DNA from: Chrysomallon squamiferum
Lineage: Eukaryota > Animalia > Mollusca
Direction: 5' to 3'
Assembly (NCBI GenBank): GCA_012295275.1
Contig: CM022673.1
Span: forward strand, 868,001 to 932,000
Length of the DNA stretch: 64,000 nt
Of this stretch, positions 1 to 63,963 are shown in pieces; the stretch's first letter is position 1; every line of letters begins with the position of its first letter. The position numbers and the translations under genes are program-made. The notes under the pieces are model-generated. The model was given only the letters and a program-made list of their open reading frames with translations. It was not told the origin of the DNA and searched no databases.

Positions 1-190
1 TTGAAATTTATTTTATCCTGACCTAGCAGTAACCAAGTTTTATTTATTATACTTAAATATATATATAATGGATATATGAAGTGAACTGAATTCACTGAAT
101 GCTACATCCACTTTTTAATTAATGTATTTTATAGTTTTGAGCTAGATGTGAAATAAAATATAAAATTAAATATGATTCTAGTTTCATTTC
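1..190 (+). other. 3' UTR/polyadenylation region of an additional upstream paralog (copy 0); its CDS lies outside the window
   Basis: Matches the 3' UTRs that follow the stop codons of copies 1-5, closest to copy 3 (25504 onward, sharing 'ccactttt' and 'atagttttgagc'). AATAAA at 152-157. Confidence 0.8.
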
Positions 191-250
191 TATATAATTC
201 TTCTTCTCCTTCTTCTTCTTCTTATTATTATTATTATATAATGTCTTTGC

Positions 251-302
<52 letters not shown>

Positions 303-442
303 TGTCTGTCTCTCTGTATGTATGTATGTACGTATGTAAGTATCTTTCTGAAACCCTATGTTTGTATATGTCTGTTTTAGTGTGCATGTTTATGTAATAA
401 TAACAACCACAAAACAAGACTCCTAGAACTGCTACTACTACA

Positions 443-493
<51 letters not shown>

Positions 494-500
494 CATAATC

Positions 501-534
<34 letters not shown>

Positions 535-760
535 TAGTAACAACAAAATTAACAATGATAATAATAATAATAAAATTAATAATAATAAAATGAGCATTAC
601 CAGTATTCAGATAAAATGCTTATTCGTTTTTCTCCGTGTTCAACGGTAATTCAGGGCAGATAAATGACGAACTTCTATACCCGGTTTAACAGTAGTCTCC
701 TTCTGCATTAGAATCTAAGAAGCTATTATTGTGTCTTTAGTGTCCAAATTAGTTTCGAAA

Positions 761-801
<41 letters not shown>

Positions 802-2852
802 CAGTATAAAAAAATTAAGCTTACATGTATCTGACATTACCCACTGCTATCATACAGTTCTGTTAAAACCCGATCGTATTACACAGAACTGTATGGCCAG
901 CTTTAATCGACTATGTTTAGTTAATACTGTATCACGTGGAATCATCCTTGACCTGATTCGTGATATTTAATGTCTTGTTTCATGTGTAATATGCCACTAG
1001 ACGTTTTTTATTTGTTGTTGTAACTGCATTGGTTAATTTAGATAATGAATATATTTAACATGTACTGCAAATTTTAGATATCGATGAGACTTAATTACAA
1101 TCTGAGCTATCAGAACATGTACAAAAATGGTTAAAGATCCATTTAAGCGGATTTTGTTTTTGTTTGTTAATTCAGTTTATGTACAAAATGCAAGAGTAGT
1201 GTATTATAAGGTAAAGGTGACATTAAATTAGTTTTAACTGATTTAATTGTTTAAGAACAAAGAATTTCAATTGCTTTTACACTGTCTGCTGGCGATTAAT
1301 TACCGTATCAAATAGGTTAAAATAAAAGTAATTTTATCACAGAAAAGTTAACAGAGATTATTTTTCTTTAACTTAACAAATGACCTTTTCTGAACTTCAA
1401 GAGCAACAGCATATCCAGTTTAAAAGAACAAAACAATGAAGTACAAGTCAGTGTTTTCTAAAGGAAAAGCTACAAACTAATAAATATTTCCAAATTTGTT
1501 TCTCATCTTGTCTTAATAAGATCATGTTGTATTACCGAAAATAGAATTCGAGACAGACTTCGAATTATATTTTCAGTTTCATACACAAAACATTTAGCTT
1601 CCATTTGAGGACCTTCAACATTGCATATTTAAAATGTTCTTTTAGATAATAATGATTAATTGACTGACAATGCGTTTTGATCATGTACAGATCCCGGCCT
1701 AGTGTCATTACGTCATCTTGCGACATACATTTCACGTATCGTCCGTCCGTCATCTTTCATTTCATCAGATTTGTTCCTCAGCCTTCTCTCACTCTCTCAT
1801 ATCGAGACAATATTAACAAATATTGAACTATAACCAAATGTAATCATCGCTTTCGACAAAGCACGCCATTCTTTAGCAAAATAAGAAAAACATAACCAGG
1901 TCTCGTGTATATGCATATATATATCTATAAATGTATGTATGTATGTATGTATGTATGTATGTGTGTATGCGTGTATGCATACATGCATGTATGTATTTAC
2001 ATAAACATCTATGTATATATGTACATACGTACGTAAATTAACCTGCATGTTTATGAACTTGCATTTATGCACAGACTGACATAACTGTTTGCTGCATATG
2101 CTTTGAATATATTTTTTAACTCAGATGTTATTCTAAAGAACCCACAGGGAAGACCTGGTTTAATATTCACTGTGTATGTGTTTATCATATGTGCATGCAC
2201 ATATATATGGAGGTATGTGTGTATATATGTATGTATGTAAATATGTATACTGTTCATATTTTACCCAATTCATAGAGAGGAAGAAACAAAAAAAAAAGAT
2301 TTACTTTATTGAGGAACCTTTTATTATTTGGGAATTAATTTAAATAAAGTACAAGAATTTTGTGTAATTTCTGTACTGAAGATTAGTACACTTGCTCCAG
2401 GTTATTCCGACCTAACTTAATTATTATTTAAGGGAGTTAATTCGGTACACCAGTCTGTTATCAGCCTTTGAAAGAAACACACAAAATGTATTGCATCATT
2501 ACACTAGCACAAAAGTGTTACCTGTAAAGGAAAAAACCCTCGATATTGAGTGAAATAAACGTCCTATGCATGCGATTTTTTAAAGAACTTATTTAGAAAA
2601 CGCTTTTATAAGCGTGTTGCCATCAAATATAAATGAAAGAACACAAAACACTCTCTTGCAGCTGTATTCTATTTGATCTTTTCTCTCTATTCCGTAACGT
2701 GTCAAAAGTTTTATATATTATTTGTTTGTTATTTATGAAAAGTTTGCGCATGTTGATCACTTTTCCTCCAGTCAGTATTTTCGTCTAACACAGCTACCAC
2801 CTGACACTTTGCTGTTTATTTACACGTTGCCAAACAATCTTTAAAAGAAATC

Positions 2853-2990
2853 AATATTACGTACCACCTCTTGACGATAATAATTTTGTTTTGGCAACAG
2901 AGCTGTATAAATGGGTAAAACTGAGATACACAAATCATACCACGGACACATTTCAAGACGGTGGAAGGAAAAGCCAAGAAGAAGTCAAAG
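2853..2990 (+). promoter_or_regulatory. Core promoter/5' UTR of copy 1 (TATA box 2906-2911)
   Basis: GCTGTATAAATGG lies about 80 nt before the ATG, at the same spacing in copies 2-6. The upstream motif AATATTACGTACCACC and the 5' UTR motif GGAAGGAAAAGCCAAGAA are also kept in diverged copy 6. Confidence 0.7.
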
Positions 2991-5969
2991 ATGAAAGCCT
3001 TGTTTCTGGTCGTTGTTCTAGCAGGTTAGTTTATTGTACATATGTGTAATGCACATGTCTGACTGTATATTATCATTATATTTGCATCGTAGTATTAAAA
3101 TTCTTATTTTAATATTAATAATTATATTCCATAAATTACTATACCAATGAATAGCAGTAATTTACTACGAGAATATTTTGCTCAATACAACCGTCTGACT
3201 GCATCTGCTCATTTTCGACTGTATTTACTATTGCAGTCGTGTTGTTGTTTTTTCACAAATAATAGAGTAGATAGAAAAGTGAAATTTTAGTTTTTCTGTT
3301 CTAAACCGAGACGATTCATCTTAGATGTCACCCATAAAATCGGTTCATAAATGTTATTACTATTATTCCTATTATTATTGTTGTTATTAATATTATTATT
3401 AGTAGTAGTAGTATACTTCTTGTGCATCACAGGGATTCTTAGTAAAGAGAAATAACTCAAGATATCCTTTTGTGAACAGATTTTAATGTATCTGATGTAC
3501 AACATACTGATCAAGTGATATTATTTATTTTTCTTCTTTCGTTCTCCAATTTAGTTCTTACTGGATCAGTACAGTCAGAGACGACAACCTGTAAGACTTG
3601 TTATGACACTTTCGCGGCTGCAATTGTTGTATCTTTGGACAGGTGCACGTACGTCTTTCTATTTTCATCATTTACAAACATGTTTTTACGATAATCTGTG
3701 TATGTATATCGTGGGTCTTATTATGTTCGTTTCTAATTTAATAATTTCTTTTACTATAATTATTTGTTTTTAAATTAACATGTAAAATGTCCCGTCTATT
3801 CAGATAATATATTTTTCTAAATAACAGAAATATTAGTATATCCTTTTGCTAAATAATCAAAATAACCCTCTAAAAAAAAAAGTAAAAAAAGAAAGAAAAT
3901 AAATTGTTCATGAATTATTATGTATGTACATTTTAGATGTCATCTTTTATATTTCGTACTAATAATTCCGCGCTATTATACACAAAGGCACGCAAGCACG
4001 CACAGATGTGCAGTCAGACACATAGACACTCTAAAACGTGTATTGGTAATTATGTAACATCTGTTCATACTGACAGAACTTCACAGAGAAAATCTGGCAA
4101 CCTTCTATTAAATAATTTTTCGTTTCTTTCTCAGAGCGGCTACAACAGCTGCTACGTGTCTTCTTGCTGGAACTGATGCCACTTTGTACTGGACAATCAA
4201 CCAACACTGCTGAAAAACAGTTAAAAGAGGGCAGCGGCACAGTGTACAGCATTGCAAAAACTCAAAATTGTGGTAAAATATCACAGAAAAATTACATAAA
4301 TCATTGTTTTGCCTCTTCCTTATCGTCACCATATTAAGTCTTATCAGTCATCAGATGTCCTTAAATTAATATCATTTTTTTATTCAGATAACAATGCGTT
4401 TTATAATGTAAATTAAATGAAAAATAATAATATTGTTTTCAGTAATCCTTTCCATAATCATCATCTTCACTTTTATGATCATATAGTCATGCTTGATCAC
4501 GCTGTTATGGGAATCATCATCATTATTATTAAGACCATACGGTCATCATCAATTTCTTCATTACCACGATCATACTCTCTTGATCATACCGTCTTCATCA
4601 TCATTTTCATTATCATGATCATACCGTTATCATCATCATCATCTTCTTCTTCTTCTTCTTTATAATGATCATGCGTCTTCGTCATCACCATCACAAACCG
4701 TTTTGATTATCCTTATCATTTTATGTTAAGTAACATACATTTTATATTGAAAATTAAATGAAAAATAATAACATCTTCATTTTCATAATCATATAGTCAT
4801 GATGATCATGATGATTATTACGATCACACCGTTTTGATCATTGTTATCATCACTGTTATTATTTTGCGTTACAGATCCTGGAATAACTGATTTGTGTTCA
4901 TGTCAAGGAGAATATGCTACTAAGGTGGCATCCAGAACAAACACGACACCAAAAGAGACTAAATGCACGTAAGAAGATTTTATTTTACGCTGACTGTTTA
5001 TTTCTTTATCTGTCTGTCTATCTCTCTGTATATCTGTATAATCACTATAATAATTTAAATTACTAATTTCTAAAAAACGATAATTTTTGTTTTCCCAACT
5101 CAGCAATATATAAACACACAGAGAAACATTCCTACATACATATATACATACGTACATACCTATATACATACATTGATACATAAATATGTACATAACTGTG
5201 CGAATAAATGCATGTAAACATGGGTGTGTGAAGTTGTTATTGTTTCATGTGTGCCAATCACGAACAGAAAATACTACAAGATATGTGTCTGTGTTATATA
5301 TGTATAAATACATATAATCATATTTTTTATATGGGGATGTTGCTGATAACAAACAAATAATGTTAGCTGTATTGTTTTATGTTTTCTTCATTCAGCGAAG
5401 CAAAAGCCTACAAGACCTGTGTAGCTGGAAAAGATGTCGCCATGAAAGCCTGTGATGGAAAAACACTGCAGCCTGCTATTAAAACTGAAGCCGAGGCAAA
5501 GGTTACAGAATTATGTAAGTATTAGTGTTAGCATAATTCTGTGCTGTTTTATTCATACATTCAAAATTAATAATTTATTTATAGTACATTAGTCCAAAAT
5601 GAAATAAGTTATTTATTCCGAGGCAAAGGTTTCAGAATTTTGTAAGTATTTATTTATTTATTGATCGATTGATTTAATTAGTTTTCCACTGAAAAAGATT
5701 TCCTGTCAGATAAATCTAATTTTAAAAATTAAAATAAAATCTGTTGATAGAAATCTGATATTTATATTGTAAATTAGTATATGCCATCTCAGTATATTAA
5801 ACTAAGTCTTTTTTTTTAAACTGCAACACACATATCTGACTGGTTATTAAGTCATTTTCACTTTTCTGTTTTGTTTTCAGGTAATAAAGGAATCTCTGTC
5901 GTTGTTGGAGTCAAACAGTTTCTGCTGATGATCACTTTGGCTCTGTTTCAGAACTATTTGAAATATTAA
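2991..5969 (+). pseudogene. Copy 1: six-exon secreted, GPI-anchored-type Cys-rich protein gene with a +1 frameshift in exon 3 (pseudogene or assembly error)
   Basis: Exons 2991-3024, 3555-3648, 4135-4272, 4875-4968, 5396-5514, 5881-5969, all GT-AG. Exon 3 is 138 nt versus 137 nt in paralogs (ACTTTGT versus ACTTGT at 4181-4187), giving TGA at 4211-4213. Corrected protein: MKALFLVVVLAVLTGSVQSETTTCKTCYDTFAAAIVVSLDRCTAATTAATCLLAGTDATCTGQSTNTAEKQLKEGSGTVYSIAKTQNCDPGITDLCSCQGEYATKVASRTNTTPKETKCTEAKAYKTCVAGKDVAMKACDGKTLQPAIKTEAEAKVTELCNKGISVVVGVKQFLLMITLALFQNYLKY. Confidence 0.8.
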
Positions 5970-13843: not shown

Positions 13844-14241
13844 ATGAAAGCCTTGTTTCTGGTCGTTGTTCTAGCAGGTTAGTTTATTGTACATATGTGT
13901 AATGCACATCTATGACTGTATATTATCAATATATTTGCATCGTAGGATTAAAATTCTTATTTTAATATTAATAATTATATTTCATAAGTTACCATTCCTG
14001 TGAATAGCAGTAATCTACTACGAGAATATTTTGTTAATACAACCGTCTGAATTCATCTGTTCATTTTCGACTGTATTTACTATTGCAGTCGTGTTGTTGT
14101 TTTTTCACAAATAACAGAGTAGATAGAAAAGTGACATTTTAGTTTTTCTGTTCTAAACCGAGTCGATTCATATGAGATGTCACCCATAAAATCGGTTCAT
14201 AAATGTTATTACTATTATTATTAGTAGTAGTAGTAGTAGTG

Positions 14242-14273
<32 letters not shown>

Positions 14274-16653
14274 TGTAGTAGTATACTTCTTGTGCATCAC
14301 AGGGATTCTTAGTAAAGAGAAATGACTCAAGATATCCTTTTGTGAACAGATTTTAATGTATCTGATGTGTAACATACTGATCAAGCCATATTATTTATTT
14401 TTCTTCTTTTGTTTCTCCAATTTAGTTCTTACTGGATCAGCACAATCAGGCACAACCTGTGAGTCTTGTGTTACCACCCTCAGTGGTGCAAGTAAAGATA
14501 ATATGTGCAAGTACGTCTTTCTATATTCATCATTTACAAACCCTCTAAAAAAAAAAGTAAAAAAAAGAAGAAAATAAATTGTTCATGAATTATTATGTAT
14601 GTACATTTTAGATGTCATGGTTTATATTTTGTACTAATAATTCCGCGCTGTTATATACAAACGCACGCACGCACGCACGCACAGATGTACAATCATACAC
14701 ATATATACTGTAAAACACGTATTTGTAATTATGTAACATCTGTTCATACTGACAAAACTTCACAGAGAAAATCTGGCAAGCTTCTATTAAATAATTTTTC
14801 GTTTCTTTCTCAGAGCGGTTACAACAGCTGCTACATGTCTTCTTGTTGGAACTGATGCCACTTGTACTGGACAATCAGCCAACACTGCTGAAAAACAGTT
14901 AAAAGATGGCACAGTGTACATGGTTGCACAAAATGAAAATTGTGGTAAAATATCATAGAAAAATTACATAAATCATTGTTTTTCCTCTTCCTTATCATCA
15001 TCATATTAAGTCTTATCAGTCATCAGATGTCCTTAAACTAATATCATTTTTTATTAAGATAACAATGCATTTTATAATAAAAATTAAATGGAAAATAACA
15101 ATATTGTTTTCAGTAATCCTTCCCATAATCATCATCTTCATTTTTACAATCATATAGTCATGATTGATCACGCTGTTATGACGATCATCATCATTATTAT
15201 TAAGACAATATGGTCATCATCAATTTCTTCATTATCTTGATCATACCGTCTTGATCATTATTTTCATTATCATGATCATACCGTTATCATCATCATCATC
15301 TTCTTCTTCTTCTTTATAACGATCATGCGTCTTCGTCATCATCATCTCAAACCGTTTTGATTATCCTTATCGTTTTATGTTAAGTAACATACATTTTATA
15401 ATGAAAATTAAATGAAAAATTATAATATTGTTTTCAGTAATCCTTCCTATAATCATCATCTTCACTTTTATGATCATATCGTCATGATGATGATGATCAA
15501 TATTACTATCACACCGTTTTGATCATTCTCATCATAACTGTGATTATTTTGCGTTACAGATACTCACAATAACTTTTCTTGCTTTGTGTTCATGTCAAGG
15601 AGAATATGCTACTAAGGTGGCTTCCAGAACAAGCACGACATCAAAGGAAACTAAATGCACGTAAGAAGATTTTATTTTACGCTGACTGTCTGTTTATTTC
15701 TTTATCTGTCTGTCTGTCTGTCTCTCTGTATGTCTGTATAATCACTATAATAATTTAAATTACTCATTTCTAAAAAATGATAATTTTTGTTTTCCCAACT
15801 CAGCGATATATAAACACACACAGAAACATTCCTACATACATATATACATACATGCATACATAAATATACACATAACAGTACGAATAAATGCATGTAAACA
15901 TGTGTGTAGTTATTGTTTCATGTGTGCCAATCACGAACACAAAATACTACAAGACATGTGTCTCTGTTATAGATGTATAAATACATATAAGCATATTTTT
16001 TATATGGGGATGATGCTGATAAAAAACAGATAACGTTAGCTCTATTGTTTTATGTTTTCTTCATTCAGCGAAGCAAAAGCCTACAAGATCTGTGTCTCTG
16101 AAAATGATGCCGCCATGAAAGCCTGTGATGGAACAAAAGAGCAGCCTGATATTAAAACTGAAGCCGAGGCAAACGTTACAGAATTTTGTAAGTATTAGTG
16201 TTAGCACAATTCTGTGCTGTTTTATTCATACATTCTAAATTAATAATTTATTTATATTACATTAGTCCAAAATGAAATAAGTTATTCCGAGGCAAAGGTT
16301 ACAGAATTTTGTAAGTATTTATTTATTTATTATTTATTTATTTATTGATCGATTGATTTAATTAGTTTTCCACTGAAAAAGATTTCCTATCAGATAAATC
16401 TAATTTTAAAAATTAAAATAAAATCTCTTCTTAGAAATCTGATATTTATATTATAAATTAGTATATTCTATCTCAGTATATTAAACTAAGTCTTTTTTTT
16501 TAAACTGCAACACACATATCTGACTGGTTATTAAGTCATTTTCACTTTTCTGTTTTGTTTTCAGGTAATAAAGGAATCTCTGTCGTTGTTGGAGTCAAGC
16601 AGTTTCTGCTGATGATCGCTTTGACTCTGTTTCAGAACTATTTGAAATATTAA
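13844..16653 (+). pseudogene. Copy 2: paralog with a frameshift at the start of exon 4
   Basis: Exons 13844-13877, 14426-14510, 14814-14944, 15560-15660, 16069-16187, 16565-16653. Exon 4 is 101 nt versus 94 nt (+7), giving DTHNNFSCFVFMSRRICY then TAA at 15613-15615. Domain 1 is intact (GTTCESCVTTLSGASKDNMCKAVTTAATCLLVGTDATCTGQSANTAEKQLKDGTVYMVAQNENC). Exons 5-6 remain open. Confidence 0.8.
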
Positions 16654-22300: not shown

Positions 22301-22379
22301 TGGTTATAACTGAGATACACAAATCATACCACGGACACATTTCAAGACGTTGGAAGGAAAAGCCAAGAAGACGTCAAAG

Positions 22380-24596
22380 ATGAAAGCCTTGTTTCTGGTC
22401 GTTGTTCTAGCAGGTTAGTTTATTGAACATATTTGTAATGCACATCTATGACTGTATATTATCATTATATTTGCATTGTAGGATTAAAATTCTTATTTTA
22501 ATATTAATAATTATATTAATAAGTTATCATTCCTGTGAATAGCTGTAATTTACTACGAGAATATTTTGTTCAATACAACCGTCTGACTGCATCTGCTCAT
22601 TTTCGACTCTATTTACTATTGCAGTCGTGTTGTTGTTTTTTCACAAATAATAGATAGAAAAGTGAAATTTTAGTTTTTCTGTTCTAAACCGAGTCCATTC
22701 ATTTTAGATGTCACCCATAAAATCGGTTCATAAACGTTATTACTATTATTACTATTATTATTAGTAGTAGTAGTACTAGTAGTATTAGTATTAGTATTAG
22801 TACACTTTTTGTGCATCACAGGGATTCTTAGTAAAGAGAAATGACTCAAGATATCCTTTTGTGAACATATTTTAATGTATCTGATGTACAACACACTGAT
22901 CAAGCGATATTATTTCTTTTTCTTCTTTTGTTTCTCCAATTTAGTTCTTACTGGATCAGCACAATCAGAGACGACTACCTGTGAGGCTTGTATTAAAACT
23001 TTCACTGGTGCAACTGCTGATAAGAAGTGCACGTACGTCTTTCTATTTTCATCATTTACGAACATGTTTTTATGATGCTCTGTGTATGTTTCTGCTGAAA
23101 TAATTATATATATATGTATAAATCGTAGGTCTTATTATCTACGTTTCTAATTTAATAATTTCCTTTACTATAGTTATTTGTTTTTAAATGAACATGTAAA
23201 ATGTCCCGTCTATACAGATAATATATTTTTCTATATAACAGAAATATCAGCATATCCTTTTGCTAAATAATAAAAATAACCCTCTAAACAAAATAAAATA
23301 AAATAAAATAAAATAAATTGTTCACGAATTATTATGTATGTACATTTTAGATGCCATCGTTTATATTTTGTACTAATAATTCCGCGCTATTATACAGAAA
23401 CGCACGCACGCACGCACAGATGTACAAGCATACACATATACACGCCAAAACACGTATTGGTAATTATGTAACATCTGTTCATACTGACAGAAATTCACAG
23501 AGAAAATCCAACAAGCTTCTATTAAATAATTTTTCATTTCTTTATCAGAGCGGTTACAACAGCTGCTACATGTCTTCTTGCTGGAACTGATGCCACTTGT
23601 ACTGGACAATCAACCAACACTGCTGAAAAACAGTTAAAAGATGGCACCGACACAGTGTACAAAATATCACAAACTAAAACATGTGGTAAAATATCATAGA
23701 AAAATTACATAAATCATAGTTTTTCCTCTTACTTATCGTCATCATATTAAGTCTTATCAGTCATCAGATGTCCTTAAACTAATATCATTTTTTATTAAGA
23801 TAACAATGCGTTTTATAATGAAAATTAAATGGAAAATAATAATATTGTTTTCAGTAATCCTTCCCATAATCATCATCTTCAGTTTTACAATCATATAGTC
23901 ATGCTTTATCACGCTGTTATGACGATCATCATCATTATTATTAAGACCATATGGTCATCATAATTTCTTCATTATCTTGATCATACCGTCTTGATCATTA
24001 TTTTCATTATCATGGTCATACCGTTATCATCATCATCATCATCATTTTCTTCTTCTTCTTCTTTATAACGATCATGCGTCTTCGTCATTATCATCTCAAA
24101 CCGTTTTGATTATCCTTATCATTTTATGTTAAGTAACATACATTTTATAATGAATATTAAATGAAAAATTATAATATTGCTTTCAGTACTCCTTCCTATA
24201 ATCATCATCTTCACTTTCATGATGATGATGATCATTATTACTATCACACCGTTTTGATCATTCTCATCATCACTGTTATTATTTTGCGTTACAGATCCTG
24301 GAATAACTGATTTGTGTTCATGTCAAGGAGAATATGCTACTAAGGTGGCTTCCAGAACAAGCTCAACATCAAAGGAAACTAAATGCACGTAAGAAGATTT
24401 TAATTTACGCTGACTGTCTGTTTATTTCTTTTTCTGTCTGTCTATCTCTCTGTATATCTGTATAACCACTATAATAATTTAAATTGCTAATTTCTAAAAA
24501 ATGATAATTTTCGTTTTCCCAACTCAGCGATATATAAACACACACAGAAACATTCCTACATACATATATACATACATACATATATACATACATACA

Positions 24597-24629
<33 letters not shown>

Positions 24630-25403
24630 CTAACTGTACGAATAAATGCATGTACACATCGGTGTGTGTAGTTGTTATTGTTTCATGTGTGCCAATCACG
24701 AACACAAAATACTACAAGACATGTGTCTCTGTTATATTTTGTATATGGGGATGTTGCTGATAAAAAACAGATAATGTTAGCTGTATTGTTTCATGTTTTC
24801 TTCATTCAGCGAAGCAAAAGCCTACAAGACCTGTGTAGCTGGAAAAGATGCCGCCATGAAAGCCTGTGATGGAAAAACACTGCAGCCTGCTATTAAAACT
24901 GAAGCCGAGGCAAAGGTTACAGAATTATGTAAGTATTAGTGTTACCATAATTCTGTGCTGTTTTATTCATACATTCTAAATTAATAATTTATTTATATTA
25001 CATTAGTCCAAAATGAAAGAAGTTATTTATTCCAAGGAAAAGGTTACATAATTTTCTAAGTATTTATTTATTTATTATTTATGTATTTACTGATCGATTG
25101 ATTTATTTTGTTTTCCACTGCAAAAAATTTCTTGTCAGATAAGTATAGTTTTAAAAATTAAAATAAAATCTGATATTTAAATTGTAAATTAGTACATGCC
25201 ATCTCAGTATATTAAACTAAGTCTTTTTTTTTTTTTTTAATCTGCAACACACGTAACTGACTGGTTATTAAGTCATTTTCACGTTTCTGTTTTCAGGTGT
25301 TCAAGAGAATCAAGATAACGCAGGAGTTTCTGTCGTTGTTGGAGTCAAGCAGTTTCTTATGATGATCGCTTTGGCTCTGTTTCAGAAATATTTGAAATAT
25401 TAA
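22380..25403 (+). CDS. Copy 3: intact 192-aa signal-peptide, two-domain Cys-rich, GPI-anchored-type protein (unknown family)
   Basis: Exons 22380-22413, 22945-23032, 23549-23685, 24295-24388, 24810-24928, 25297-25403 (579 nt, open, all GT-AG). MKALFLVVVLAVLTGSAQSETTTCEACIKTFTGATADKKCTAVTTAATCLLAGTDATCTGQSTNTAEKQLKDGTDTVYKISQTKTCDPGITDLCSCQGEYATKVASRTSSTSKETKCTEAKAYKTCVAGKDAAMKACDGKTLQPAIKTEAEAKVTELCVQENQDNAGVSVVVGVKQFLMMIALALFQKYLKY. Confidence 0.92.
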
Positions 25404-25503: not shown

Positions 25504-25754
25504 TTGAAATTTATTTTATCCTGACCTAGCAGTAACCAAGTTTTATTTATTATACTTAAATATATATATAATGGATATATGAAGTGAACTGAATTCACTG
25601 AATGCTACATCCACTTTTTTAATTAATGTATTTTATAGTTTTGAGCTAGATGTGAAATAAAATATAAAATTAAATATGATTCTAGTTTCATTTCTATATA
25701 ATTCTTCTTCTCCTTCTTCTTCTTATTATTATTATTATTATATAATGTCTTTGC

Positions 25755-25808
<54 letters not shown>

Positions 25809-25949
25809 TGTCTGTCTCTCTGTATGTATGTATGTACGTACGTAAGTATCTTTCTGAAACCCTATGTTTGTATATGTCTGTTTTAGTGTGCATGTTTATG
25901 TAATAATAACAACCACAAAAACAAGACTCCTAGAACTGCTACTACTACA

Positions 25950-26003
<54 letters not shown>

Positions 26004-26010
26004 CATAATC

Positions 26011-26047
<37 letters not shown>

Positions 26048-26272
26048 TAGTAACAACAAAATTAACAATGATAATAATAATAATAAAATTAATAATAATA
26101 AAATGAGCATTACCAGTATTCAGATAAAATGCTTATTCGTTTTTCTCCGTGTTCAACGGTAATTCAGGGCAGATAAATGACGAACTTCTATACCCGGTTT
26201 AACAGTAGTCTCCCTTCTGCATTAGAATCTAAGAAGCTATTATTGTGTCTTTAGTGTCCAAATTAGTTTCGA

Positions 26273-26316
<44 letters not shown>

Positions 26317-29300
26317 CAGTAGCAAAAATTAAGCTTACATGTATCTGACATTACCCACTGCTATCATACAGCTCTGTTAAAACCCGATCGTATTACACAG
26401 AACTGTATGGCCAGCTTTAATCGACTATGTTTAGTTAATACTGTATCACGTGGAATCATCCTTGACCTGATTCGTGATATTTAATGTCTTGTTTCATGTG
26501 TAATATGCCACTAGACGTTTTTATTTGTTGTTGTAACTGCATTGGTTAATTTAGATAATGAATATATTTAACATGTACTGCAAATTTTAGATATCGATGA
26601 GACTTAATTACAATCTGAGCTATCAGAACATGTACAAAAATGGTTAAAGATCCATTTAAGCGGATTTTGTTTATGTTTGTTAATTCAGTTTATGTACAAA
26701 ATGCAAGAGTAGTGTATTATAAGGTAAAGGTGACATTAAATTAGTTTTAACTGATTTAATTGTTTAAGAACAAAGAATTTCAATTGCTTTACACTGTCTG
26801 CTGGCGATTAATTACCGTATCAAATAGGTTAAAATAAAAGTAATTTTATCACAGAAAAGTTAACAGAGATTATTTTTCTTTAACTTAACAAATGACCTTT
26901 CTGAACTTCAAGAGCAACAGCATATCCAGTTTAAAAGAACAAAACAATGAAGTACAAGTCAGTGTTTTCTAAAGGAAAAGCTACAAACTAATAAATATTT
27001 CCAAATTTGTTTCTCATCTTGTCTTAATAAGATCATGTTGTATTACCGAAAATAGAATTCGAGACAGACTTCGAATTATATTTTCAGTTTCATACTAAAC
27101 ATTTAGCTTCCATTTGAGGACCTTCAACATTGCATATTTAAAATGTTCTTTTAGATAATAATGATTAATTGACTGACAATGCGTTTTGATCATGTACAGA
27201 TCCCGGCCTAGTGTCATTACGTCATCTTGCGACATATATTTCACGTATCGTCCGTCCGTCATCTTTCATTTCATCAGATTTGTTCCTCAGCCTTCTCTCA
27301 CTCTCTCATATCGAGACAATATTAACAAATATTGAACTATAACCAAATGTAATCATCGCTTTCGACAAAGCACGCCATTCTTTAGCAAAATAAGAAAAAC
27401 ATAACCAGGTCTCGTGTATATGCATATATATATCTATAAATGTATGTATGTATGTATGTATGTATGTATGTGTGTATGCGTGTATGCATACATGCATGTA
27501 TGTATTTACATAAACATCTATGTATATATGTACATACGTACGTAAATTAACCTGCATGTTTATGAACTTGCATTTATGCACAGACTGACATAACTGTTTG
27601 CTGCATATGCTTTGAATATCTTTTTTAACTCAGATGTTATTCTAAAGAACCCACAGGGAAGACCTGGTTTAATATTCACTGTGTATGTGTTTATCATATG
27701 TGCATGCACATATATATGGAGGTATGTGTGTATATATGTATGTATGTAAATATGTATACTGTTCATATTTTACCCAATTCATAGAGAGGAAGAAAAAAAA
27801 AAAGATTTACTTTATTGAGGAACCTTTTATTATTTGGGAATTAATTTAAATAAAGTACAAGAATTTTGTGTAATTTCTGTACTGAAGATTAGTACACTTG
27901 CTCCAGGTTATTCCGACCTAACTTACTTATTATTTAAGGAATTTAATTCGGTACACCAGTCTGTTATCAGCCTTTGAAAGAAATACACAAAATGTATTGC
28001 ATCATTACACTAGCACAAAAGTGTTACCTGTAAAGGAAAAAACCCTCGATACTGAGTGAAATAAACGTCCTATGCATGCGATTTTTTAAAGAACTTATTT
28101 AGAAAACGCTTTTATAAGCGTGTTGCCATCAAATATAAATGAAAGAACACAAAACACTCTCTTGCAGCTGTATTCTATTTGATCTTTTCTCTCTATTCCG
28201 TAACGTGTCAAAAGTTTTATATATTATTTGTTTGTTATTTATGAAAAGTTTGCGCATGTTGATCACTTTTCCTCCAGTCAGTATTTTCGTCTAACACAGC
28301 TACCACCTGACACTTTGCTGTTTATTTACACGTTGCCAAACAATCTTTAAAAGAAATGAATATTACGTACCACCTCTTGACGATAATAATTTTGTTTTGG
28401 CAACAGAGCTGTATAAATGGGTAAAACTGAGATACACAAATCATACCACGGACACATTTCAAGACGGTGGAAGGAAAAGCCAAGAAGAAGTCAAAGATGA
28501 AAGCCTTGTTTCTGGTCGTTGTTCTAGCAGGTTAGTTTATTGTACATATGTGTAATGCACATGTCTGACTGTATATTATCATTATATTTGCATCGTAGTA
28601 TTAAAATTCTTATTTTAATATTAATAATTATATTCCATAAATTACTATACCAATGAATAGCAGTAATTTACTACGAGAATATTTTGCTCAATACAACCGT
28701 CTGACTGCATCTGCTCATTTTCGACTGTATTTACTATTGCAGTCGTGTTGTTGTTTTTTCACAAATAATAGAGTAGATAGAAAAGTGAAATTTTAGTTTT
28801 TCTGTTCTAAACCGAGACGATTCATCTTAGATGTCACCCATAAAATCGGTTCATAAATGTTATTACTATTATTCCTATTATTATTGTTGTTATTAATATT
28901 ATTATTAGTAGTAGTAGTATACTTCTTGTGCATCACAGGGATTCTTAGTAAAGAGAAATAACTCAAGATATCCTTTTGTGAACAGATTTTAATGTATCTG
29001 ATGTACAACATACTGATCAAGTGATATTATTTATTTTTCTTCTTTCGTTCTCCAATTTAGTTCTTACTGGATCAGTACAGTCAGAGACGACAACCTGTAA
29101 GACTTGTTATGACACTTTCGCGGCTGCAATTGTTGTATCTTTGGACAGGTGCACGTACGTCTTTCTATTTTCATCATTTACAAACATGTTTTTACGATAA
29201 TCTGTGTATGTATATCGTGGGTCTTATTATGTTCGTTTCTAATTTAATAATTTTTTTTACTATAATTATTTGTTTTTAAATTAACATGTAAAATGTCCCG

Positions 29301-30347
29301 TCTATTCAGATAATATATTTTTCTACATAACAGAAATATTAGTATATCCTTTTGCTAAATAATCAAAATAACCCTCTAAAAAAAAAAGTAAAAAAAGAAA
29401 GAAAATAAATTGTTCATGAATTATTATGTATGTACATTTTAGATGTCATCTTTTATATTTCGTACTAATAATTCCGCGCTATTATACACAAAGGCACGCA
29501 AGCACGCACAGATGTGCAGTCAGACACATAGACACTCTAAAACATGTATTGGTAATTATGTAACATCTGTTCATACTGACAGAACTTCACAGAGAAAATC
29601 TGGCAACCTTCTATTAAATAATTTTTCGTTTCTTTCTCAGAGCGGCTACAACAGCTGCTACGTGTCTTCTTGCTGGAACTGATGCCACTTGTACTGGACA
29701 ATCAACCAACACTGCTGAAAAACAGTTAAAAGAGGGCAGCGGCACAGTGTACAGCATTGCAAAAACTCAAAATTGTGGTAAAATATCACAGAAAAATTAC
29801 ATAAATCATTGTTTTGCCTCTTCCTTATCGTCATCATATTAAGTCTTATCAGTCATCAGATGTCCTTAAATTAATATCATTTTTTTATTCAGATAACAAT
29901 GCGTTTTATAATGTAAATTAAATGAAAAATAATAATATTGTTTTCAGTAATCCTTTCCATAATCATCATCTTCACTTTTATGATCATATAGTCATGCTTG
30001 ATCATGCTGTTATGGGAATCATCATCATTATTATTAAGACCATACGGTCATCATCAATTTCTTCATTACCACGATCATACTCTCTTGATCATACCGTCTT
30101 CATCATCATTTTCATTATCATGATCATACCGTTATCATCATCATCTTCTTCTTCTTCTTCTTCTTTATAATGATCATGCGTCTTCGTCATCACCATCACA
30201 AACCGTTTTGATTATCCTTATCATTTTATGTTAAGTAACATACATTTTATATTGAAAATTAAATGAAAAATAATAACATCTTCATTTTCATAATCATATA
30301 GTCATGATGATCATGATGATTATTACGATCACACCGTTTTGATCATT
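25504..30347 (+). repeat. Near-identical segmental duplication, partner of 1-4842
   Basis: Collinear with the window start. Near-identity ends in intron 3 of copy 4. Confidence 0.9.
28412..28417 (+). promoter_or_regulatory. TATA box of copy 4
   Basis: GCTGTATAAATGG, 80 nt upstream of ATG 28497. Confidence 0.7.
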
Positions 30348-31492
30348 CTCATCATAACTGTGATTATTTTGCGTTACAGATCCTGGAATAACTGATTTGT
30401 GTTCATGTCAAGGAGAATATGCTACTAAGGTGGCTTCCAGAACAAGCACGACATCAAAGGAAACTAAATGCACGTAAGAAGATTTTATTTTACGCTAACT
30501 GTCTGTTTATTTCTTTTTCTGTCTGTCTATCTCTCTGTATATCTGTATAACCCCTGTAATAATTTAAATTGCTAATTTCTAAAAAATGATAATTTTCGTT
30601 TTCCCAACTCAGCGATATATAAACACACACAGAAACATTCCTACATACATATATACATACATACATACATATATACATACATACATACATAAATACATAC
30701 ATACATACATACATATATACATACATAACTGTACGAATAAATGCATGTACACATGGGTGTGTGAAGTTGTTATTGTTTCATGTGTGCCAATCACGAACAC
30801 AAAATACTACAAGACATGTGTCTCTGTTATATATGTATAAATACATATAAGCATATTTTGTATATGGGGGTGTTGCTGATAAAAAACAGATAATGTTAGC
30901 TGTATTGTTTTATGTTTTCTTCATTCAGCGAAGCCAAAGCCTACAAGACCTGTGTAGTTGGAAAAGATGCCGCAATGAAAGCCTGTGATGGAAACACACT
31001 GCAGCCTGCTATTAAAACTGAAGCCGAGGCAAAGGTTACAGAATTGTGTAAGTATTAGTGTTAGCATAATCCTGTTTTGTTTTATTCATACATTCTAAAT
31101 TAATAATTTATTTATATTACATTAGTCCAAAATGAAACAATTTATTTATTCCGAGGAAAATTTTCTAAGTTTCATTTATTTATTATTTATGTATTTACTG
31201 ACCGATTGAGTTATTTAGTTTTCCACTGCAAAAGATTTCTTGTCAGATAAGTATAGTTTTAAAAATTAAAATAAAATCTGATATTTAAATTGTAAATTAA
31301 TATATGCCATCTCAGTATATTAAACTAAGTCTTTTTTTTTAAACTGCAACACACATAACTGACTGGTTATTAAGTCATTTTCACTTTTCTGTTTTGTTTT
31401 CAGGTAATAAAGGAATCTCTGTGGTTCTTGGAGTCAAACAATTTCTGATGATGATCGCTTTGGCTGTGTTTCAGAACTATTTGAAATATTAA
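28497..31492 (+). CDS. Copy 4: intact 188-aa paralog
   Basis: Exons 28497-28530, 29061-29154, 29641-29777, 30380-30473, 30929-31047, 31404-31492 (567 nt, open). Exons 1-3 are as copy 1 without the frameshift, then DPGITDLCSCQGEYATKVASRTSTTSKETKCTEAKAYKTCVVGKDAAMKACDGNTLQPAIKTEAEAKVTELCNKGISVVLGVKQFLMMIALAVFQNYLKY. Confidence 0.92.
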
Positions 31493-35404: not shown

Positions 35405-35604
35405 NNNNNNNNNNNNNNNNNNNNNNNNNNNNNNNNNNNNNNNNNNNNNNNNNNNNNNNNNNNNNNNNNNNNNNNNNNNNNNNNNNNNNNNNNNNNNNNN
35501 NNNNNNNNNNNNNNNNNNNNNNNNNNNNNNNNNNNNNNNNNNNNNNNNNNNNNNNNNNNNNNNNNNNNNNNNNNNNNNNNNNNNNNNNNNNNNNNNNNNN
35601 NNNN
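35405..35604. other. Assembly gap (200 N)
   Basis: Run of N starting within a (TATG)n tract. Confidence 0.99.
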
Positions 35605-39902: not shown

Positions 39903-42884
39903 ATGAAAGCCTTGTTTCTGGTCGTTGTTCTAGCAGGTTAGTTTATTGTACATATGTGTAATGCACATCTATGACTGTATATTATCATTATATTTGCATT
40001 GTAGGATTAAAATTCTTATTTTAATATTAATAATTATATTTCATAAGTTACCATTCCTGTGAATAGCTGTAATTTACTACGAGAATATTTTGTTCAATAC
40101 AACCGTCTGACTTCATCTGCTCATTTTCGACTGTATTTACTATTGTAGTCGTGTTGTTGTTTTTTCACAAATAATAGAGTAGATAGAAAAGTGAAATTTT
40201 AGTTTTTCTGGTCTAAACCGAGTCTATTCATCGTAGAATTCACCCATAAAATCGGTTCATAAATGCTATTACTATTATTATTATTATTATTATTATACTT
40301 CTTATGCATCACAGGGATTCTTAGTAAAGAGAAATGACTCAAGATATCCTTTGTGAACAGATTTTAATGTATCTGATGTACAACATACTGATCAAGCGAT
40401 ATTATTTATTTTTGTTCTTTTTTTCTCCAATTTAGTTCCTACTGGATCAGCACAATCTGGCAAACCCTGTGAGGCTTGTGTTAAAGCTTTCACTGATGCA
40501 GCTGATGCTAACAAGTGCACGTACGTCTTTCTATTTTTTGTCATTTACAAACAAGTTTTTACGATGATCTGTGTATGTTTTTGCTGAAATATTTAAATAT
40601 ATATATCGTAGGTTTTATTATCTTCGTTTCTAATTTAATAATTTCTTTTACTATAATTATTTGTTTTTAAATTAACATGTAAAATGTCCCATCTATACAG
40701 GTAATATATTTGTCTAAATAACAGAAATATCACCAAATCCTTTTGCTAAATAATAAACATCTCTGAAAAAAAAAAGTAAAAAAAAAAAGAAAATAAATTC
40801 TTCATGAATTATTATGTATGTACATTTTAGATGTGATCTTTTATATTCTGTACTAATGATTTCAGCGCACATATACACAAGCACACGAACTCACGCACAG
40901 ATGTACAATCATACACATATACACTCTAAAACACGTATTTGTAATTATGTTACATCTGTTCATACTGACAGAACTTCACAGAGAAAATCTGGCAACCTTC
41001 TATTAAATAATTTTTCGTTTCTTTCACAGAGCGGCTACAACAGCTGCTACATGTCTTCTTGCTGGAACTGATGCGACTTGTACTGGACAATCAGCCAACA
41101 CTGCTGAAAAACAATTAAAAGATGGCACCAACACAGTGTACAAAGTATCACAAACTAAAACATGTGGTAAAATATCATAGAAAAATTACATAAATCATTG
41201 TTTTTCCTCTTCCTTATCGTCATCATATTATGTCTTATCAGTCATCAGATGTCCTGAAACTATTATCTTTTTTATTAAGATAACTATGCGTTTTATAATG
41301 AAAATTAAATGGAAAATAATAATATTGTTTTCACTAATCCTTCCCATAATCATCATTTTCATTTTTATAATCATATAGTCATGCTTGATCACGCTGTTAT
41401 GACGATCATCATCATTATTATTAAGACCATATGGTCATCATCAATTTCTTCATTACCACGATCATACTATCTAGATCATACGGTCTTGATCATCATTTTC
41501 ATTATCATGATCATACCATTATCGTCATCATCATCATCTTCTTCTTCTTCTTTATAACGATCGTGCGTCTTCGTCATCATCATGTCAAACCGTTTTGATT
41601 ATCCTTATCATTTTATGTTAAGTAACATACATTTTATAATGAAAATTAAATGAAAAATAATAATATTGTTTTTAGTAACCCTTCCTATAATCATCATCTT
41701 CACTTTTATGATCATATCGTGATGATGATGATCATCATTATTACGATCACACCGTTTTGATCATTCTCATCATCATTATTTTGCGTTACAGTTCCTGGAA
41801 TAACTAAGTTGTGTTCATGTCAAGGACAATATGCTACTAAGGTGGCTTCCAGAACAAGCTCAACATCAAAAGAAACTAAATGCACGTAAGGAGATTTTAA
41901 TTTACGCTAACTGTCTGTTTATTTCTTTTTCTGTCTGTCTATCTCTCTGTATATCTGTATAACCACTATAATAATTTAAATTGCTAATTTCTAAAAAATG
42001 ACAATTTTCATTTTCCCAACTCAGCGATATATAAACACACACAGAAACATTCCTACATACATATATACATACATACATACATAACTGCACGAATAAATAC
42101 ATGTACACATGGGTGTGTGAAGTTGTTATTGTTTCATGTGTGCCGATCACGAACACAAAATACTACAAGACATGAGTCTCTGTTATATATGTATAAATAC
42201 ATATAAGCATATTTTTATTTGGGGATGTTGCTGATAAGAAACAGATAATGTTAGCTGTATTGTTTTATGTTTTCTTCATTCAGCGAAGCAAAAGCCTACA
42301 AGACCTGTGTAGTTGGAAAAGATGCCACCATGAAAGCCTGTGATGGAAAAACACTGCAGCCTGCTATTAAAACTGAAGCCGAGGCAAAGGTTACAGAATT
42401 TTGTAAGTATTAGTGTTAGCATAATTCTGTGCTGTTTTATTCATACATTCTAAATTAATAATTTATTTATATTACATTAGTCCAAAATGAAATAAGTTAT
42501 TTATTCCTAGGCAAAGGTTACGGAATTTTGTAAGTATTTATTTATTTATTATTTATTTATTTATTGATCGATTGATTTAATTAGTTTTCCACTGCAAAAG
42601 CTTTCCTGTCGCATAAATCTAATTTTAAAAATTAAAATAAAATCTGTTGGTAGAAATCTGATATTTATATTGTAAATTATTATATGTCATCTCAGTATAT
42701 TTAACTAAGTTTTTTTTTTTTTTTTAAACTGCAACACACGTAACTGACTGGTTATTAGGTCATTTTCACTTATCTGTTTTCAGGTCCTCAAGAGAATCAA
42801 AATAATCAAGAGAATCAAGATAATCAAAGAATCAAGATAACGCAGGAGTTTCTGTCGTTGTTGGATTCAAGCAGTTTCTGTTGA
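39903..42884 (+). CDS. Copy 5: 189-aa paralog; a last-exon frameshift replaces the GPI-type tail (ancestral stop at 42923-42925)
   Basis: Exons 39903-39936, 40436-40520, 41030-41166, 41792-41885, 42284-42402, 42784-42884. MKALFLVVVLAVPTGSAQSGKPCEACVKAFTDAADANKCTAATTAATCLLAGTDATCTGQSANTAEKQLKDGTNTVYKVSQTKTCVPGITKLCSCQGQYATKVASRTSSTSKETKCTEAKAYKTCVVGKDATMKACDGKTLQPAIKTEAEAKVTEFCPQENQNNQENQDNQRIKITQEFLSLLDSSSFC. Confidence 0.85.
42789..42841 (+). repeat. Coding 9-bp tandem repeat (CAA-GAG/GAT/AAT-AAT) with one 8-bp unit
   Basis: Six units here, two in copy 3 (25302-25319), none in copies 1, 2, 4 and 6. Confidence 0.9.
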
Positions 42885-43215
42885 TGTTCGCTTTGGCTCT
42901 GTTTCAGAACTGTTTGAAATATTAATGTTTGTCCTGATACGTCAAACTGACGAACTCTTTTCTCTGTGAAACTCAGAGTTTCTGTTTCTAATCATGAACC
43001 AATAGACGTGTTTTGAAGTTTATTTTATCCTGACCTAGCAGTAACCAAGTTTTATTTATTATACTTAAATATATATATAATGGATATATGAAGTGAACTG
43101 AATTCACTGAATGCTACATCCATTTTTTAATTAATGTATTTTAAAGTTTTAAGCTAGATGTGAAATAAAATATAAAATTAAATATGATTCTAGTTTCATT
43201 TCTATATAATTATTA

Positions 43216-46372: not shown

Positions 46373-47166
46373 TTAATATTTCAAATAGTTCTGAAACAGA
46401 GCCAAAGCGATCATCATCAGAAACTGCTTGACTCCAACAACGACAGAGATTCCTTCATTACCTGAAATCAAAATACAAAATTGAATATCGTGTCATAAAC
46501 ATTTATAAAACTTTGGATTAGCTTTCTAAAAACACTTAGTTTATTATACTGAATTCTATATACGAATAAACAATTTAAACGATATAAAATAAAATACCAA
46601 GAATTTTTCTCTTTTTTTGTGAAAACTTAACTATTTTTCTTCGTTTGAAATAGATACATAAGACAGCATGCAAACATATGATTATTCGCAAAAACGAATG
46701 GCATTTACCTACAGAATTTTGTAATATCAGATTCTGTTTTAACAGAAGACTATTAAAAATATGTTGATAAAACAACATAGAATTTTGCTGGCAAATGCCT
46801 CTAATGCTGATATACAGATCCTGCAGACAAACCACCAATAACAGTTTTATTTACTCACAGAATTCTGTAAGCTTTCCTTCGGCTTCAGTTTTAATAGCAG
46901 GCTGCAGTTTTTTTCCATCACAGGCTTTCATTGCGGCATCTTTTCCAACTACACAGGTCTTGTAGGCTTTGGCTTCGCTGAATGAAGAAAACATAAAACA
47001 ATACAGCTAACATTATCTGTTTTTTATCAGCAACATCCCCATATAAAAAATATGCTTATATGCATTTATACATTTAAACACACGCACACATACACACATA
47101 CATAAATACATAGATTCATACATACATCCATACATATATACATACGTATATACATTCATACATATA

Positions 47167-47212
<46 letters not shown>

Positions 47213-48915
47213 ATACACAAATACACACATCTTACATACATACATACGTTCGTTAATATAACAACATATAAATATTCATACTGAAATATTCTTTATATGA
47301 ACATTTGTACAGTATCTTAGTCATATAATTATTTCAGTAGAAACAAATCTACACACTTGCATTTTGTTGCCGTTGATGTCGAGTCTATTCTGGAAGCCGC
47401 CTTGGTAGCATACTCTGCCTGACAGGAACATAAATCAGTTATTCCTGGAACCGTAACAAGAGGAAAATGATAATGATGGACGTGATGATGACAACATCAT
47501 GATGACATCATGATCGCGACAACGTTACGATGACCATGATGATGAGAACTGTGATATGAAAGATGTTGGAAAATTACATTTTAATATATAATCATTATTA
47601 GTCTGAGATTTTACTTTAAATATGAATTTGTCAGAGCTGTTGGTTGTCTGATACTAAACTAATTATTATATTTATGATGACGACGATTAAAGACATTTTA
47701 AAAAAAAATAAAAAAGATTTAGACCGTAAAAAAATTATAAACTCATTGCAGAGGAGTTTTGTATTGTTTTTTTAATAAATATAAAATACAAATTTATCAA
47801 ACATTTTGTTCTTTGCAATACGACGATGATAAGGGGAAAAAAATGATTTATTTAAATTTTCTGTGATGTTTTACCACAGCTTTTAGTTTTTGCAACTTTG
47901 TACACTGTGTCGGTGCCGTCTTTTAACTGTTTCTCAGCAGTGTATTCTGAATCTCCAGTACAAGTGTCATCAGTTCCAGCAAGAAGACATGTAGCAGCTG
48001 TTACAGCCGCTCTGAGAAAGAAACGAAAAAATCATTTAACAGACCCAAACACGTATAGTTCAGTTATCACTTTTCAAAACATTATTGTTGAGAATGTATT
48101 AGCTTTAAGCACCAGTGTCTTGATTTTAATGTATGAATGTTACTATATACTTAATGGCGGCTCCTTTAAAGAATTTATCAGCAATAAGCTGCATTTATAT
48201 TTTTCTTACATATAAATAAAAACACATACACACACACGCACACAAAACAAATACGTACGTGCACTTGTCACCGTCTTCTGCAGCTGAGAACGCAGTAACA
48301 CATTCTGTACAGGTAGACGTTGCTGGTTTTATAGCTACAAAAAATTGTTAGAGAAAAAGTAAACAACAGCAACAGCAACAACAAAAACAAAAATAAAAAC
48401 CTACTAATAATATATATGTAATATATCTTAAAACAAATGTATTATATGCATTGAAAGATGTCATCCTTTTTCTTTGCTGTTCTTAATTCTAAAAGTCGCA
48501 ATACATTAGGCCTAATATATCTGCATTTCATACGCACACGTTCATTGTTAAGTAACAAAACAGAAAGAATTTCTGATGATAAAGTTAGACAATGCCAGTG
48601 AAATATCGAGTTAGTAGATGAGATAAATCTCTGGTATCTTTCTTTATTAATTTTTCAGAGTCTCAGATCTGAGAGGAAACTTTTAATGAAACCTTGAAAT
48701 CGATTCGGAAAATATGTTTAATATAAAACGAAGTAAAAAGAAACAAAATGTAAAGTTAAATTGTTTTAAGCTTTGTTATTTTATGATTTGTACAAAATAT
48801 TTTTAAGAATACGTATCTGACCTTTACTGTCAGTTATGTTTCAAAACTTCTAAACTGTTCAATAAATAAAGAAATACAAACCTTTTAGCAAAACGATCAG
48901 AAATAACGCTTTCAT
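46373..48915 (-). CDS. Copy 6: inverted, more diverged 180-aa paralog
   Basis: Exons (minus) 48915-48882, 48334-48259, 48011-47875, 47444-47357, 46977-46859, 46461-46373 (543 nt, open using the shifted exon-4 acceptor). MKALFLIVLLKAIKPATSTCTECVTAFSAAEDGDKCTAAVTAATCLLAGTDDTCTGDSEYTAEKQLKDGTDTVYKVAKTKSCGITDLCSCQAEYATKAASRIDSTSTATKCNEAKAYKTCVVGKDAAMKACDGKKLQPAIKTEAEGKLTEFCNEGISVVVGVKQFLMMIALALFQNYLKY. Confidence 0.88.

Positions 48916-59348: not shown

Positions 59349-63963
<4,615 letters not shown>

Follow-up and report, generated by a model that had tools for sequence, protein, structure and literature searches.

A segment of exon 2 in a tandem array of six-exon genes forms a sharp-edged peak of divergence among copies that evolve in concert, and the amino acid change concentrated there has probably been selected. 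These genes, which belong to an unnamed family, lie in a window of 64,000 nucleotides, the whole stretch of Chrysomallon squamiferum DNA that we analyzed. The evolutionary pattern itself is well known; the scaffold that carries it appears to be undescribed within the searches made. The explanation we favor, which we consider somewhat better than an even bet, is that the array encodes predicted secreted and probably GPI-anchored proteins with two six-cysteine repeats, with exchange homogenizing the copies and selection favoring amino acid change in two patches: HV1 in exon 2 and HV2 at the end of exon 3.

The gene array and its predicted products

Self-comparison of the window, which is AT-rich (24-35% GC) with abundant microsatellites, detected five tandem plus-strand copies and one inverted copy of the gene, each with six exons and intron phases 1-2-1-2-1. 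The GT-AG introns and standard genetic code fit eukaryotic, most likely animal, DNA. The tandem copies are copy 1 (2991-5969; exon 2 at 3555-3648), whose 5' half is near-identical to that of copy 4; copy 2 (13844-16653; exon 2 at 14426-14510); copy 3 (22380-25403); copy 4 (28497-31492; exon 2 at 29061-29154), with an open frame of 188 codons; and copy 5 (39903-42925; exon 2 at 40436-40520). For copy 3, the splice model predicts exons at 22380-22413, 22945-23032, 23549-23685, 24295-24388, 24810-24928, and 25297-25403, giving an open frame of 192 codons. A scaffold gap of 200 N (35405-35604) lies at the boundary of copies 4 and 5, across which copy order and number are uncertain. Copy 6 (46373-48915, minus strand; exon 2 at 48334-48259) is the inverted, older paralog: its introns are mostly unalignable to those of copies 3 to 5, and its frame is open only via a non-canonical CGG acceptor at exon 4. 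We also identified a distant paralog absent from the earlier note, copy 7 (59349-63963, plus strand; exons at 59349-59382, 60986-61082, 61431-61552, 62312-62399, 62980-63092, and 63890-63963), with an open frame of 175 codons and 12 cysteines. It has the intron phases and the 34-nt exon 1 length of the other copies, and its alignment to copy 3 (58 identities in 199 columns) scored 140, compared to a maximum of 54 in 2,000 shuffles.

Frameshifts interrupt three of the five tandem copies: copy 1 in exon 3, copy 2 in exon 4, and copy 5 in exon 6. Copy 1 carries one surplus base in exon 3, either real or a sequencing error; the copy 2 frameshift falls at the start of exon 4, downstream of a complete domain 1; and that of copy 5 falls in a short repeat in exon 6, past all 12 cysteines, such that the hydrophobic tail would be lost. 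This 18-nt repeat opens exon 6, with one unit in copy 3 (25297-25330) and about three in copy 5 (42784-42850), where it carries the frameshift; it lengthens the stalk ahead of the hydrophobic tail. All seven paralogs, copies 6 and 7 among them, retain a GTATAAAT box some 85 nt before the start codon, likely a shared TATA promoter. Elsewhere in the window, intron 1 of copy 7 begins with a 42-nt tandem repeat of about 11.5 copies (59429-59911), and a GC-richer island behind a poly(A) run (56229-56420) holds a short cysteine-rich frame for which no Pfam match and no acceptor site were seen; it is possibly a fragment of a mobile element.

The gene product starts with a hydrophobic segment, continues with two six-cysteine groups, and closes with a hydrophobic tail (best 19-residue hydropathy of 1.6-2.2) that ends no more than a few residues short of the stop codon. 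Hydropathy thus predicts a signal peptide and a GPI anchor; small residues follow the last cysteine, where a candidate omega site may lie. Cysteine spacing is 2, 12, 8, 8, 27 in repeat 1 and 1, 20, 8, 10, 20 in repeat 2, with no CC pair. Since introns lie one codon past Cys3, Cys6, and Cys9, and at or one codon past Cys12, the two repeats point to an internal duplication. Aligned to each other, they showed no significant sequence similarity; cysteine spacing and intron positions are the grounds for calling them repeats.

Structure models, which cover single exons only, predicted the exon 2 peptide as one helix (pLDDT 70, rising to 82 across residues 11-20); the exon 3 model (pLDDT 48) was unusable. 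The least variable exon 2 positions are Cys1, Cys2, Phe/Leu, and Ala at i, i+3, i+7, and i+10, a spacing from which we infer that they would form a buried face and leave the variable residues exposed. The predicted fold is helical and disulfide-bonded. If each repeat is a three-helix bundle, the cysteines would likely be bonded 1-5, 2-4, and 3-6, tying the HV1 loop to HV2. On this putative bonding pattern, the two patches would sit where domain 1 joins domain 2 rather than at the N-terminal tip. The earlier note had assigned the variable region to a membrane-distal, ligand-binding face; such a face is putative, its membrane-distal position following solely from domain order and a GPI-like tail judged by hydropathy.

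Homology searches were conducted with single exons. Word-seeded searches of longer proteins scored none of 5829, 2135, and 7994 candidates; a pattern search returned 598 matches, none confirmed as a homolog; the Atlas search yielded no usable hit; and the Pfam scan gave no match at the cut-off. Rfam returned microsatellite matches alone, all below threshold. One further search gave a single hit, P0001 (1743 residues, a repeat protein bearing a bacterial secretion tail), which was rejected as a chance match, as was a PDB match to CpcN/CpcJ, in which a coincidence of 14 residues was summed over repeats. With queries of just 28-47 residues, these negative results carry little weight. A literature search found no description of such a family, though an unnamed one could be missed.

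Divergence in domain 1 and variants in other samples

The peptides quoted in the earlier note, six from the Cys1-Cys3 region and four from exon 3, all match the window as written, and the indels it described in exon 2 are in frame (lengths of 94, 85, 88, 94, 85, and 76 nt in copies 1 to 6). Exon 1 is identical among copies 1 to 5 (0 of 34 sites differ in 10 of 10 pairs), as had been stated. Exon 2, which in copy 3 (22945-23032) encodes the predicted end of the signal peptide, the mature N-terminus, and Cys1 to Cys3 in an open frame with AG/GT ends, was also confirmed to be more divergent than the flanking introns: across nine pairs, with the near-identical pair of copies 1 and 4 excluded, divergence was 0.165-0.318 in exon 2 versus 0.051-0.078 in intron 1 and 0.067-0.124 in intron 2. 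Copies 1 and 4 are identical in exon 2 and count as one exon 2 sequence.

In the sliding-window comparison that the note had proposed, the top 45-nt window among 3509 aligned sites was 22983-23027, with a mean pairwise difference of 0.33. None of 20,000 site permutations reached this value (maximum, 0.267) under a null that ignores clustering by conversion. The edges are sharp: in 15-base bins, divergence drops to 0.03 at 22930-22959 and at 23035-23049. The divergent tract runs from close to the predicted signal cleavage site as far as Cys3, and the signal peptide codons within exon 2 are spared. An intron 1 microsatellite ranks second; third, and next among the non-microsatellite windows, is 23642-23686, which coincides with the second variable patch that had been reported at the end of exon 3. 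We designated the two patches HV1 (22983-23027, plus strand, between Cys1 and Cys3 in copy 3) and HV2 (23640-23681, plus strand, at the end of exon 3 just before Cys6). Among copies 2 to 5, 13 of 15 codons in HV1 and 10 of 14 in HV2 vary in amino acid. The remainder of domain 1 is nearly invariant, in line with the earlier description (3 of 33 codons vary); in domain 2, 14 of 69 codons do so. Sites with at least three bases among copies 2 to 5 cluster in the same place (8 of 24 within 22986-23026), and seven of these eight sit at first or second codon positions. Minimum numbers of changes in HV1 were 12, 13, and 7 at the three codon positions, the third being the least changed. Cysteine codons were unchanged in all six copies. 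The total rate of HV1 was 5.6 to 7.8 times that of introns 1 to 3.

Nine sequencing runs from three studies, none of them recorded as RNA, contain the stretch, and four were compared as short-read contigs over 22330-23780; this comparison rests on 32 of 391 pieces and 40 of 224 rows of differences, and one run may be the source of the window. Among the pieces listed, a contig of run X2 matched copy 3 over 22917-23056 with no differences. The 11 further exon 2 pieces listed were compared by mismatch and gap count: six fit copies 2, 4, or 5 with at most one mismatch, two equal copy 3 with six differences, one lies near copy 5 (11 differences versus 14 expected), and the remaining two, X3 record 17 and X7 record 26, have 3-7 mismatches beyond any of copies 2, 4, and 5. 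Depth matching across rows, an indirect criterion, suggests that a Gly-to-Ala change at 23008, within HV1, is present in the copy 3-like pieces from X3 and X7, and that X3 record 17 and X7 record 26 represent one further exon 2 type. A loose end of X3 holds an HV2 type not present in the window. Among the pieces listed, then, the exon 2 types of copies 2, 3, 4, and 5 are all reproduced, at least three types occur inside one run, and exon 2 and HV2 types vary from run to run. Because contigs match the window types and carry extra ones, either alleles or paralogs, the variants are genuine and the window captures only part of the repertoire; their recurrence across studies marks them as inherited rather than somatic.

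Sequence exchange, tests for selection, and alternative explanations

Informative sites are clustered along the array (33 adjacent-same patterns among 52 informative sites, versus 16.8 expected; 0 of 10,000 shuffles), and the best tree varies by exon. The copies are mosaics of one another, and conversion is at work in the array. Copies 1 and 4 differ at 21 sites across 1-4800 (aligned with 25504-30300) and then abruptly at 4-10%, with the switch at the junction of intron 3 and exon 4; this may reflect a recent crossover, a long conversion, or an assembly chimera. Exchange has also reached the older paralog. Exon 5 of copy 6, with about 100 nt of upstream intron, is common to the tandem array (107 of 115), and exon 6 has 3-9 differences in 89, the region of sharing spanning 46373-47090 on the minus strand. 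In exon 2, by comparison, copy 6 differs from the array at 27-32 of 73-76 sites. Because copy 6 shares exons 5 and 6 yet remains diverged in exon 2, exon 2 resists homogenization that reaches other exons. As a separate observation, exon 5 of copy 2 (16069-16187), which lies downstream of the frameshift in that copy, differs by 10-13% from the other tandem copies, mostly at non-synonymous sites, and is more divergent than its introns; it was possibly imported from a paralog outside the view of the window.

These exchanges bring forward the strongest competing explanation, which we regard as credible though rather unlikely: that the exon 2 variants are old, either as an island escaping homogenization or as imports from paralogs elsewhere, and that conversion keeps the introns young. 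Amino acid change need not then outrun silent change; any selection would act against conversions, as for exon 5 of the red and green opsins, or divergence itself would block them. The demonstrated conversion among copies speaks for this explanation, as do the exon-sized exchange of copy 6 with exon 2 escaping, exon 5 of copy 2 likewise outdiverging its own introns, and the exon 2 type in the contigs that the window lacks. The candidate donors in view fit it poorly: in HV1, copy 6 is equidistant from all four copies (pS 0.54-0.58), which disqualifies it as the donor, and copy 7 lies much farther away. Conversion from a distant paralog, which the earlier note had named as an alternative, is thus excluded only for the two paralogs in the window, and conversion itself is demonstrated.

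We fitted codon models in our own implementation (not codeml) to the four distinct sequences of copies 2 to 5; copy 1 was omitted because it duplicates copy 4 in exons 1 to 3, and HV1 was picked by eye. Site models on one tree gave likelihood ratio test (LRT) values of 33.3 (M1a/M2a) and 33.1 (M8a/M8), with p ~1e-8 and omega ~9 on 14-15% of sites; six of the eight sites with posterior >0.9 fall in exon 2. We set this p value aside because it is inflated by rate variation and cannot tell selection from a fast region. Conversion, too, can mimic positive selection (PMC3924837). Allowing a tree per exon lowered the LRT to 17.8 (p 1.3e-4), and masking uncertain copy 4 codons lowered it to 11.7 (p 0.003).

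When the fast class was given a silent rate of its own, omega was 2.7-4.0 across six settings (p 0.024-0.054 for omega = 1), and omega = 1 was rejected at p < 0.05 in five of the six. A normal silent rate for this class was rejected in none of them (p 0.19-0.78). When calibrated on introns 1 to 3, the HV1 rate decomposed into a silent factor of 2.0-3.4 and an omega of 2.5-3.6. Exon base frequencies led to rejection of omega = 1 in all six fits (p 0.031-0.042), intron base frequencies in none of six (p 0.075-0.31); a silent factor of 1 was rejected in one of 11 usable fits, one fit at a poor optimum (intron frequencies, first tree, rate fixed at 1) having been excluded. By region, omega was 2.9-4.3 for HV1 (p 0.027-0.071 over six alignments) and 3.9 for HV1 and HV2 together (p 0.011); the omega test was not significant for HV2 alone (p 0.12) or for the whole of exon 2 (omega 1.7-2.1, p 0.10-0.24). 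Neutral simulations on star or per-codon mosaic trees reached the observed pN/pS in 60-185 of 4000 replicates for HV1, 17-58 for HV1 and HV2, and 226-639 for exon 2.

Allowing double-hit mutations for up to 15% of events left the HV1 and HV2 signal in place (p 0.007-0.018), and GC3 is not raised, except mildly in copy 4; neither double-hit mutation nor GC-biased conversion accounts for the patch. Dropping the frameshifted copy 2 gave an HV1 omega of 6.3 (p 0.035). Adding copy 6 abolished the signal (HV1 omega 1.4, p 0.44): against this copy, pS in HV1 (0.54-0.58) exceeds pN (0.30-0.50). Codons with silent-only differences number 2 of 13 in HV1 and 3 of 31, 1 of 30, 4 of 38, and 6 of 27 elsewhere, so that HV1 is not unusual in this respect. 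Diversifying selection on exon 2, as proposed in the earlier note, is upheld in part and at moderate strength: it gives the best fit, with omega ~3-4 and p ~0.02-0.05, but significance is lost when the whole of exon 2 is tested, and the signal does not survive the inclusion of copy 6. The excess is mainly non-synonymous, with modest significance from four sequences.

The same analyses bear on the age of the variants. An estimated HV1 silent rate two to three times that of introns, together with silent-only differences at 5 of 26 exon 2 codons, speaks for old tracts, and a share of HV1 divergence may stem from them. However, codon positions 1 and 2 hold most changes, whereas old tracts should saturate third positions first, and a rate-only model was worse than the free model (p 0.02-0.05). 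A mutation hot spot or hypermutation directed at exon 2, in which exposed residues are less constrained and change brings no benefit, is quite improbable. A neutral fast class was rejected just marginally, and cysteine codons are fixed in six copies, as they are in hypervariable cysteine-rich peptides (PMC4558851); but relaxed constraint alone cannot surpass the intron rate, divergence is back at 0.03 no more than 15 nt away on either side with signal codons of the same exon spared, both top non-repeat windows lie in domain 1, third positions are least changed, and the variants are inherited across studies. An assembly or sequencing artefact, or uncollapsed haplotypes taken as copies, is the least credible account: the abrupt switch between copies 1 and 4, the 200-N gap between copies 4 and 5, and single-base frameshifts, which can be read errors, speak for it, but an artefact could alter the copy count and the frameshifts, not the divergence. 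Short-read contigs reproduce the exon 2 types of copies 2 to 5, with at least three types inside one run.

Under the preferred explanation, selection acting on a homogenizing array, unequal crossover and conversion would homogenize the copies and also create or break them. Selection would favor amino acid change, or block homogenization, over two parts of domain 1, its first helix and loop and the segment leading up to Cys6, and the changed patches would give each copy its own putative binding surface. The putative role is recognition of a variable partner; because the repertoire is multi-copy and varies between samples, a microbe or parasite is our first guess, with a self/non-self or gamete partner possible. 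Lacking a cytoplasmic tail, the predicted protein would bind or capture its partner and not transmit a signal on its own. Soluble forms would come from copies 2 and 5, provided that the frameshifts are genuine and the transcripts persist.

A broader proposal, speculative and unlikely as it stands, is that the family constitutes an undescribed invertebrate recognition repertoire: a small helical disulfide scaffold without Ig or lectin domains, with patches joined by Cys3-Cys6 to make a single binding site, reshuffling by conversion, and soluble frameshifted forms. New specificities would arise by point change and be reshuffled among copies and individuals by conversion.

Invertebrate proteins that discriminate partners or parasites have mostly been found via such divergence peaks. 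Here, the peak marks a scaffold without a detected relative (single-exon queries) and gives a short list of residues for swaps in a binding test. The 64 kb display young converting copies, an older copy sparing exon 2 from exchange, and a distant paralog; comparison of the array with a sister species could separate fast replacement from selection against homogenization.

Comparison with known systems

Two cysteine-rich families were compared with the predicted product. Ly6/uPAR three-finger domains have 8-10 cysteines and end in CC-x-CN; the array genes instead have six cysteines per repeat and no CC, with no Pfam match among single exons. Gastropod DUF19/T20D4.11-like helical cysteine proteins presumably share the signal peptide, the GPI-like tail, and Ala/Thr-rich helical segments between spaced cysteines. 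The Pfam profile for this family did not match the single exons scanned, a weak test given that an intron splits each repeat.

Among characterized systems, the PTC2 and GRC clusters of Biomphalaria (PMC7494358, PMC10875847) offer a looser parallel: like the array, they are clustered, lineage-restricted genes for surface proteins without known domains, and they show presence/absence variation. Their products are single-pass, with ancient alleles and synonymous divergence above non-synonymous, whereas array introns are 90-95% similar, with an excess of non-synonymous change. The Mytilus MgCRP-I family and the conopeptides cited with it (PMC4558851) share with the array a conserved signal peptide and a hypervariable, cysteine-framed mature part. 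MgCRP-I also shows gene duplication, invariant cysteines with preserved codons, and M1/M2 support for positive selection. In contrast to these peptides, which have a dibasic pro-region and a C-C-CC-C-C frame in one exon, the array gene has neither, and each of its repeats is split over two exons; its products are 175-192 residues long with a hydrophobic tail, and the mature protein varies in part only.

Hydractinia Alr2 (PMC8282982) combines N-terminal-domain variation under positive selection with exon exchange involving adjacent pseudogenes, and the array resembles it in both N-terminal variation and exon exchange. Alr2 has Ig-like domains, a cytoplasmic tail, allelic variation, and demonstrated binding; in contrast, array variation is mainly between paralogs, and the proteins are predicted. 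In the array gene, the stop codon closely follows the hydrophobic stretch, so there is no cytoplasmic tail, and the single-exon Pfam scan gave no Ig match. The likeness in divergence pattern extends to exon 5 of the human red and green opsins, which is more divergent than its flanking introns in converting duplicates, an effect attributed in PMC3924837 to selection restricting conversion. In both systems, an exon outdiverges both flanking introns within converting tandem duplicates. The array differs from the opsin pair in that no fewer than five of its copies convert, individual codons have been hit repeatedly, and omega is estimated to exceed 1.
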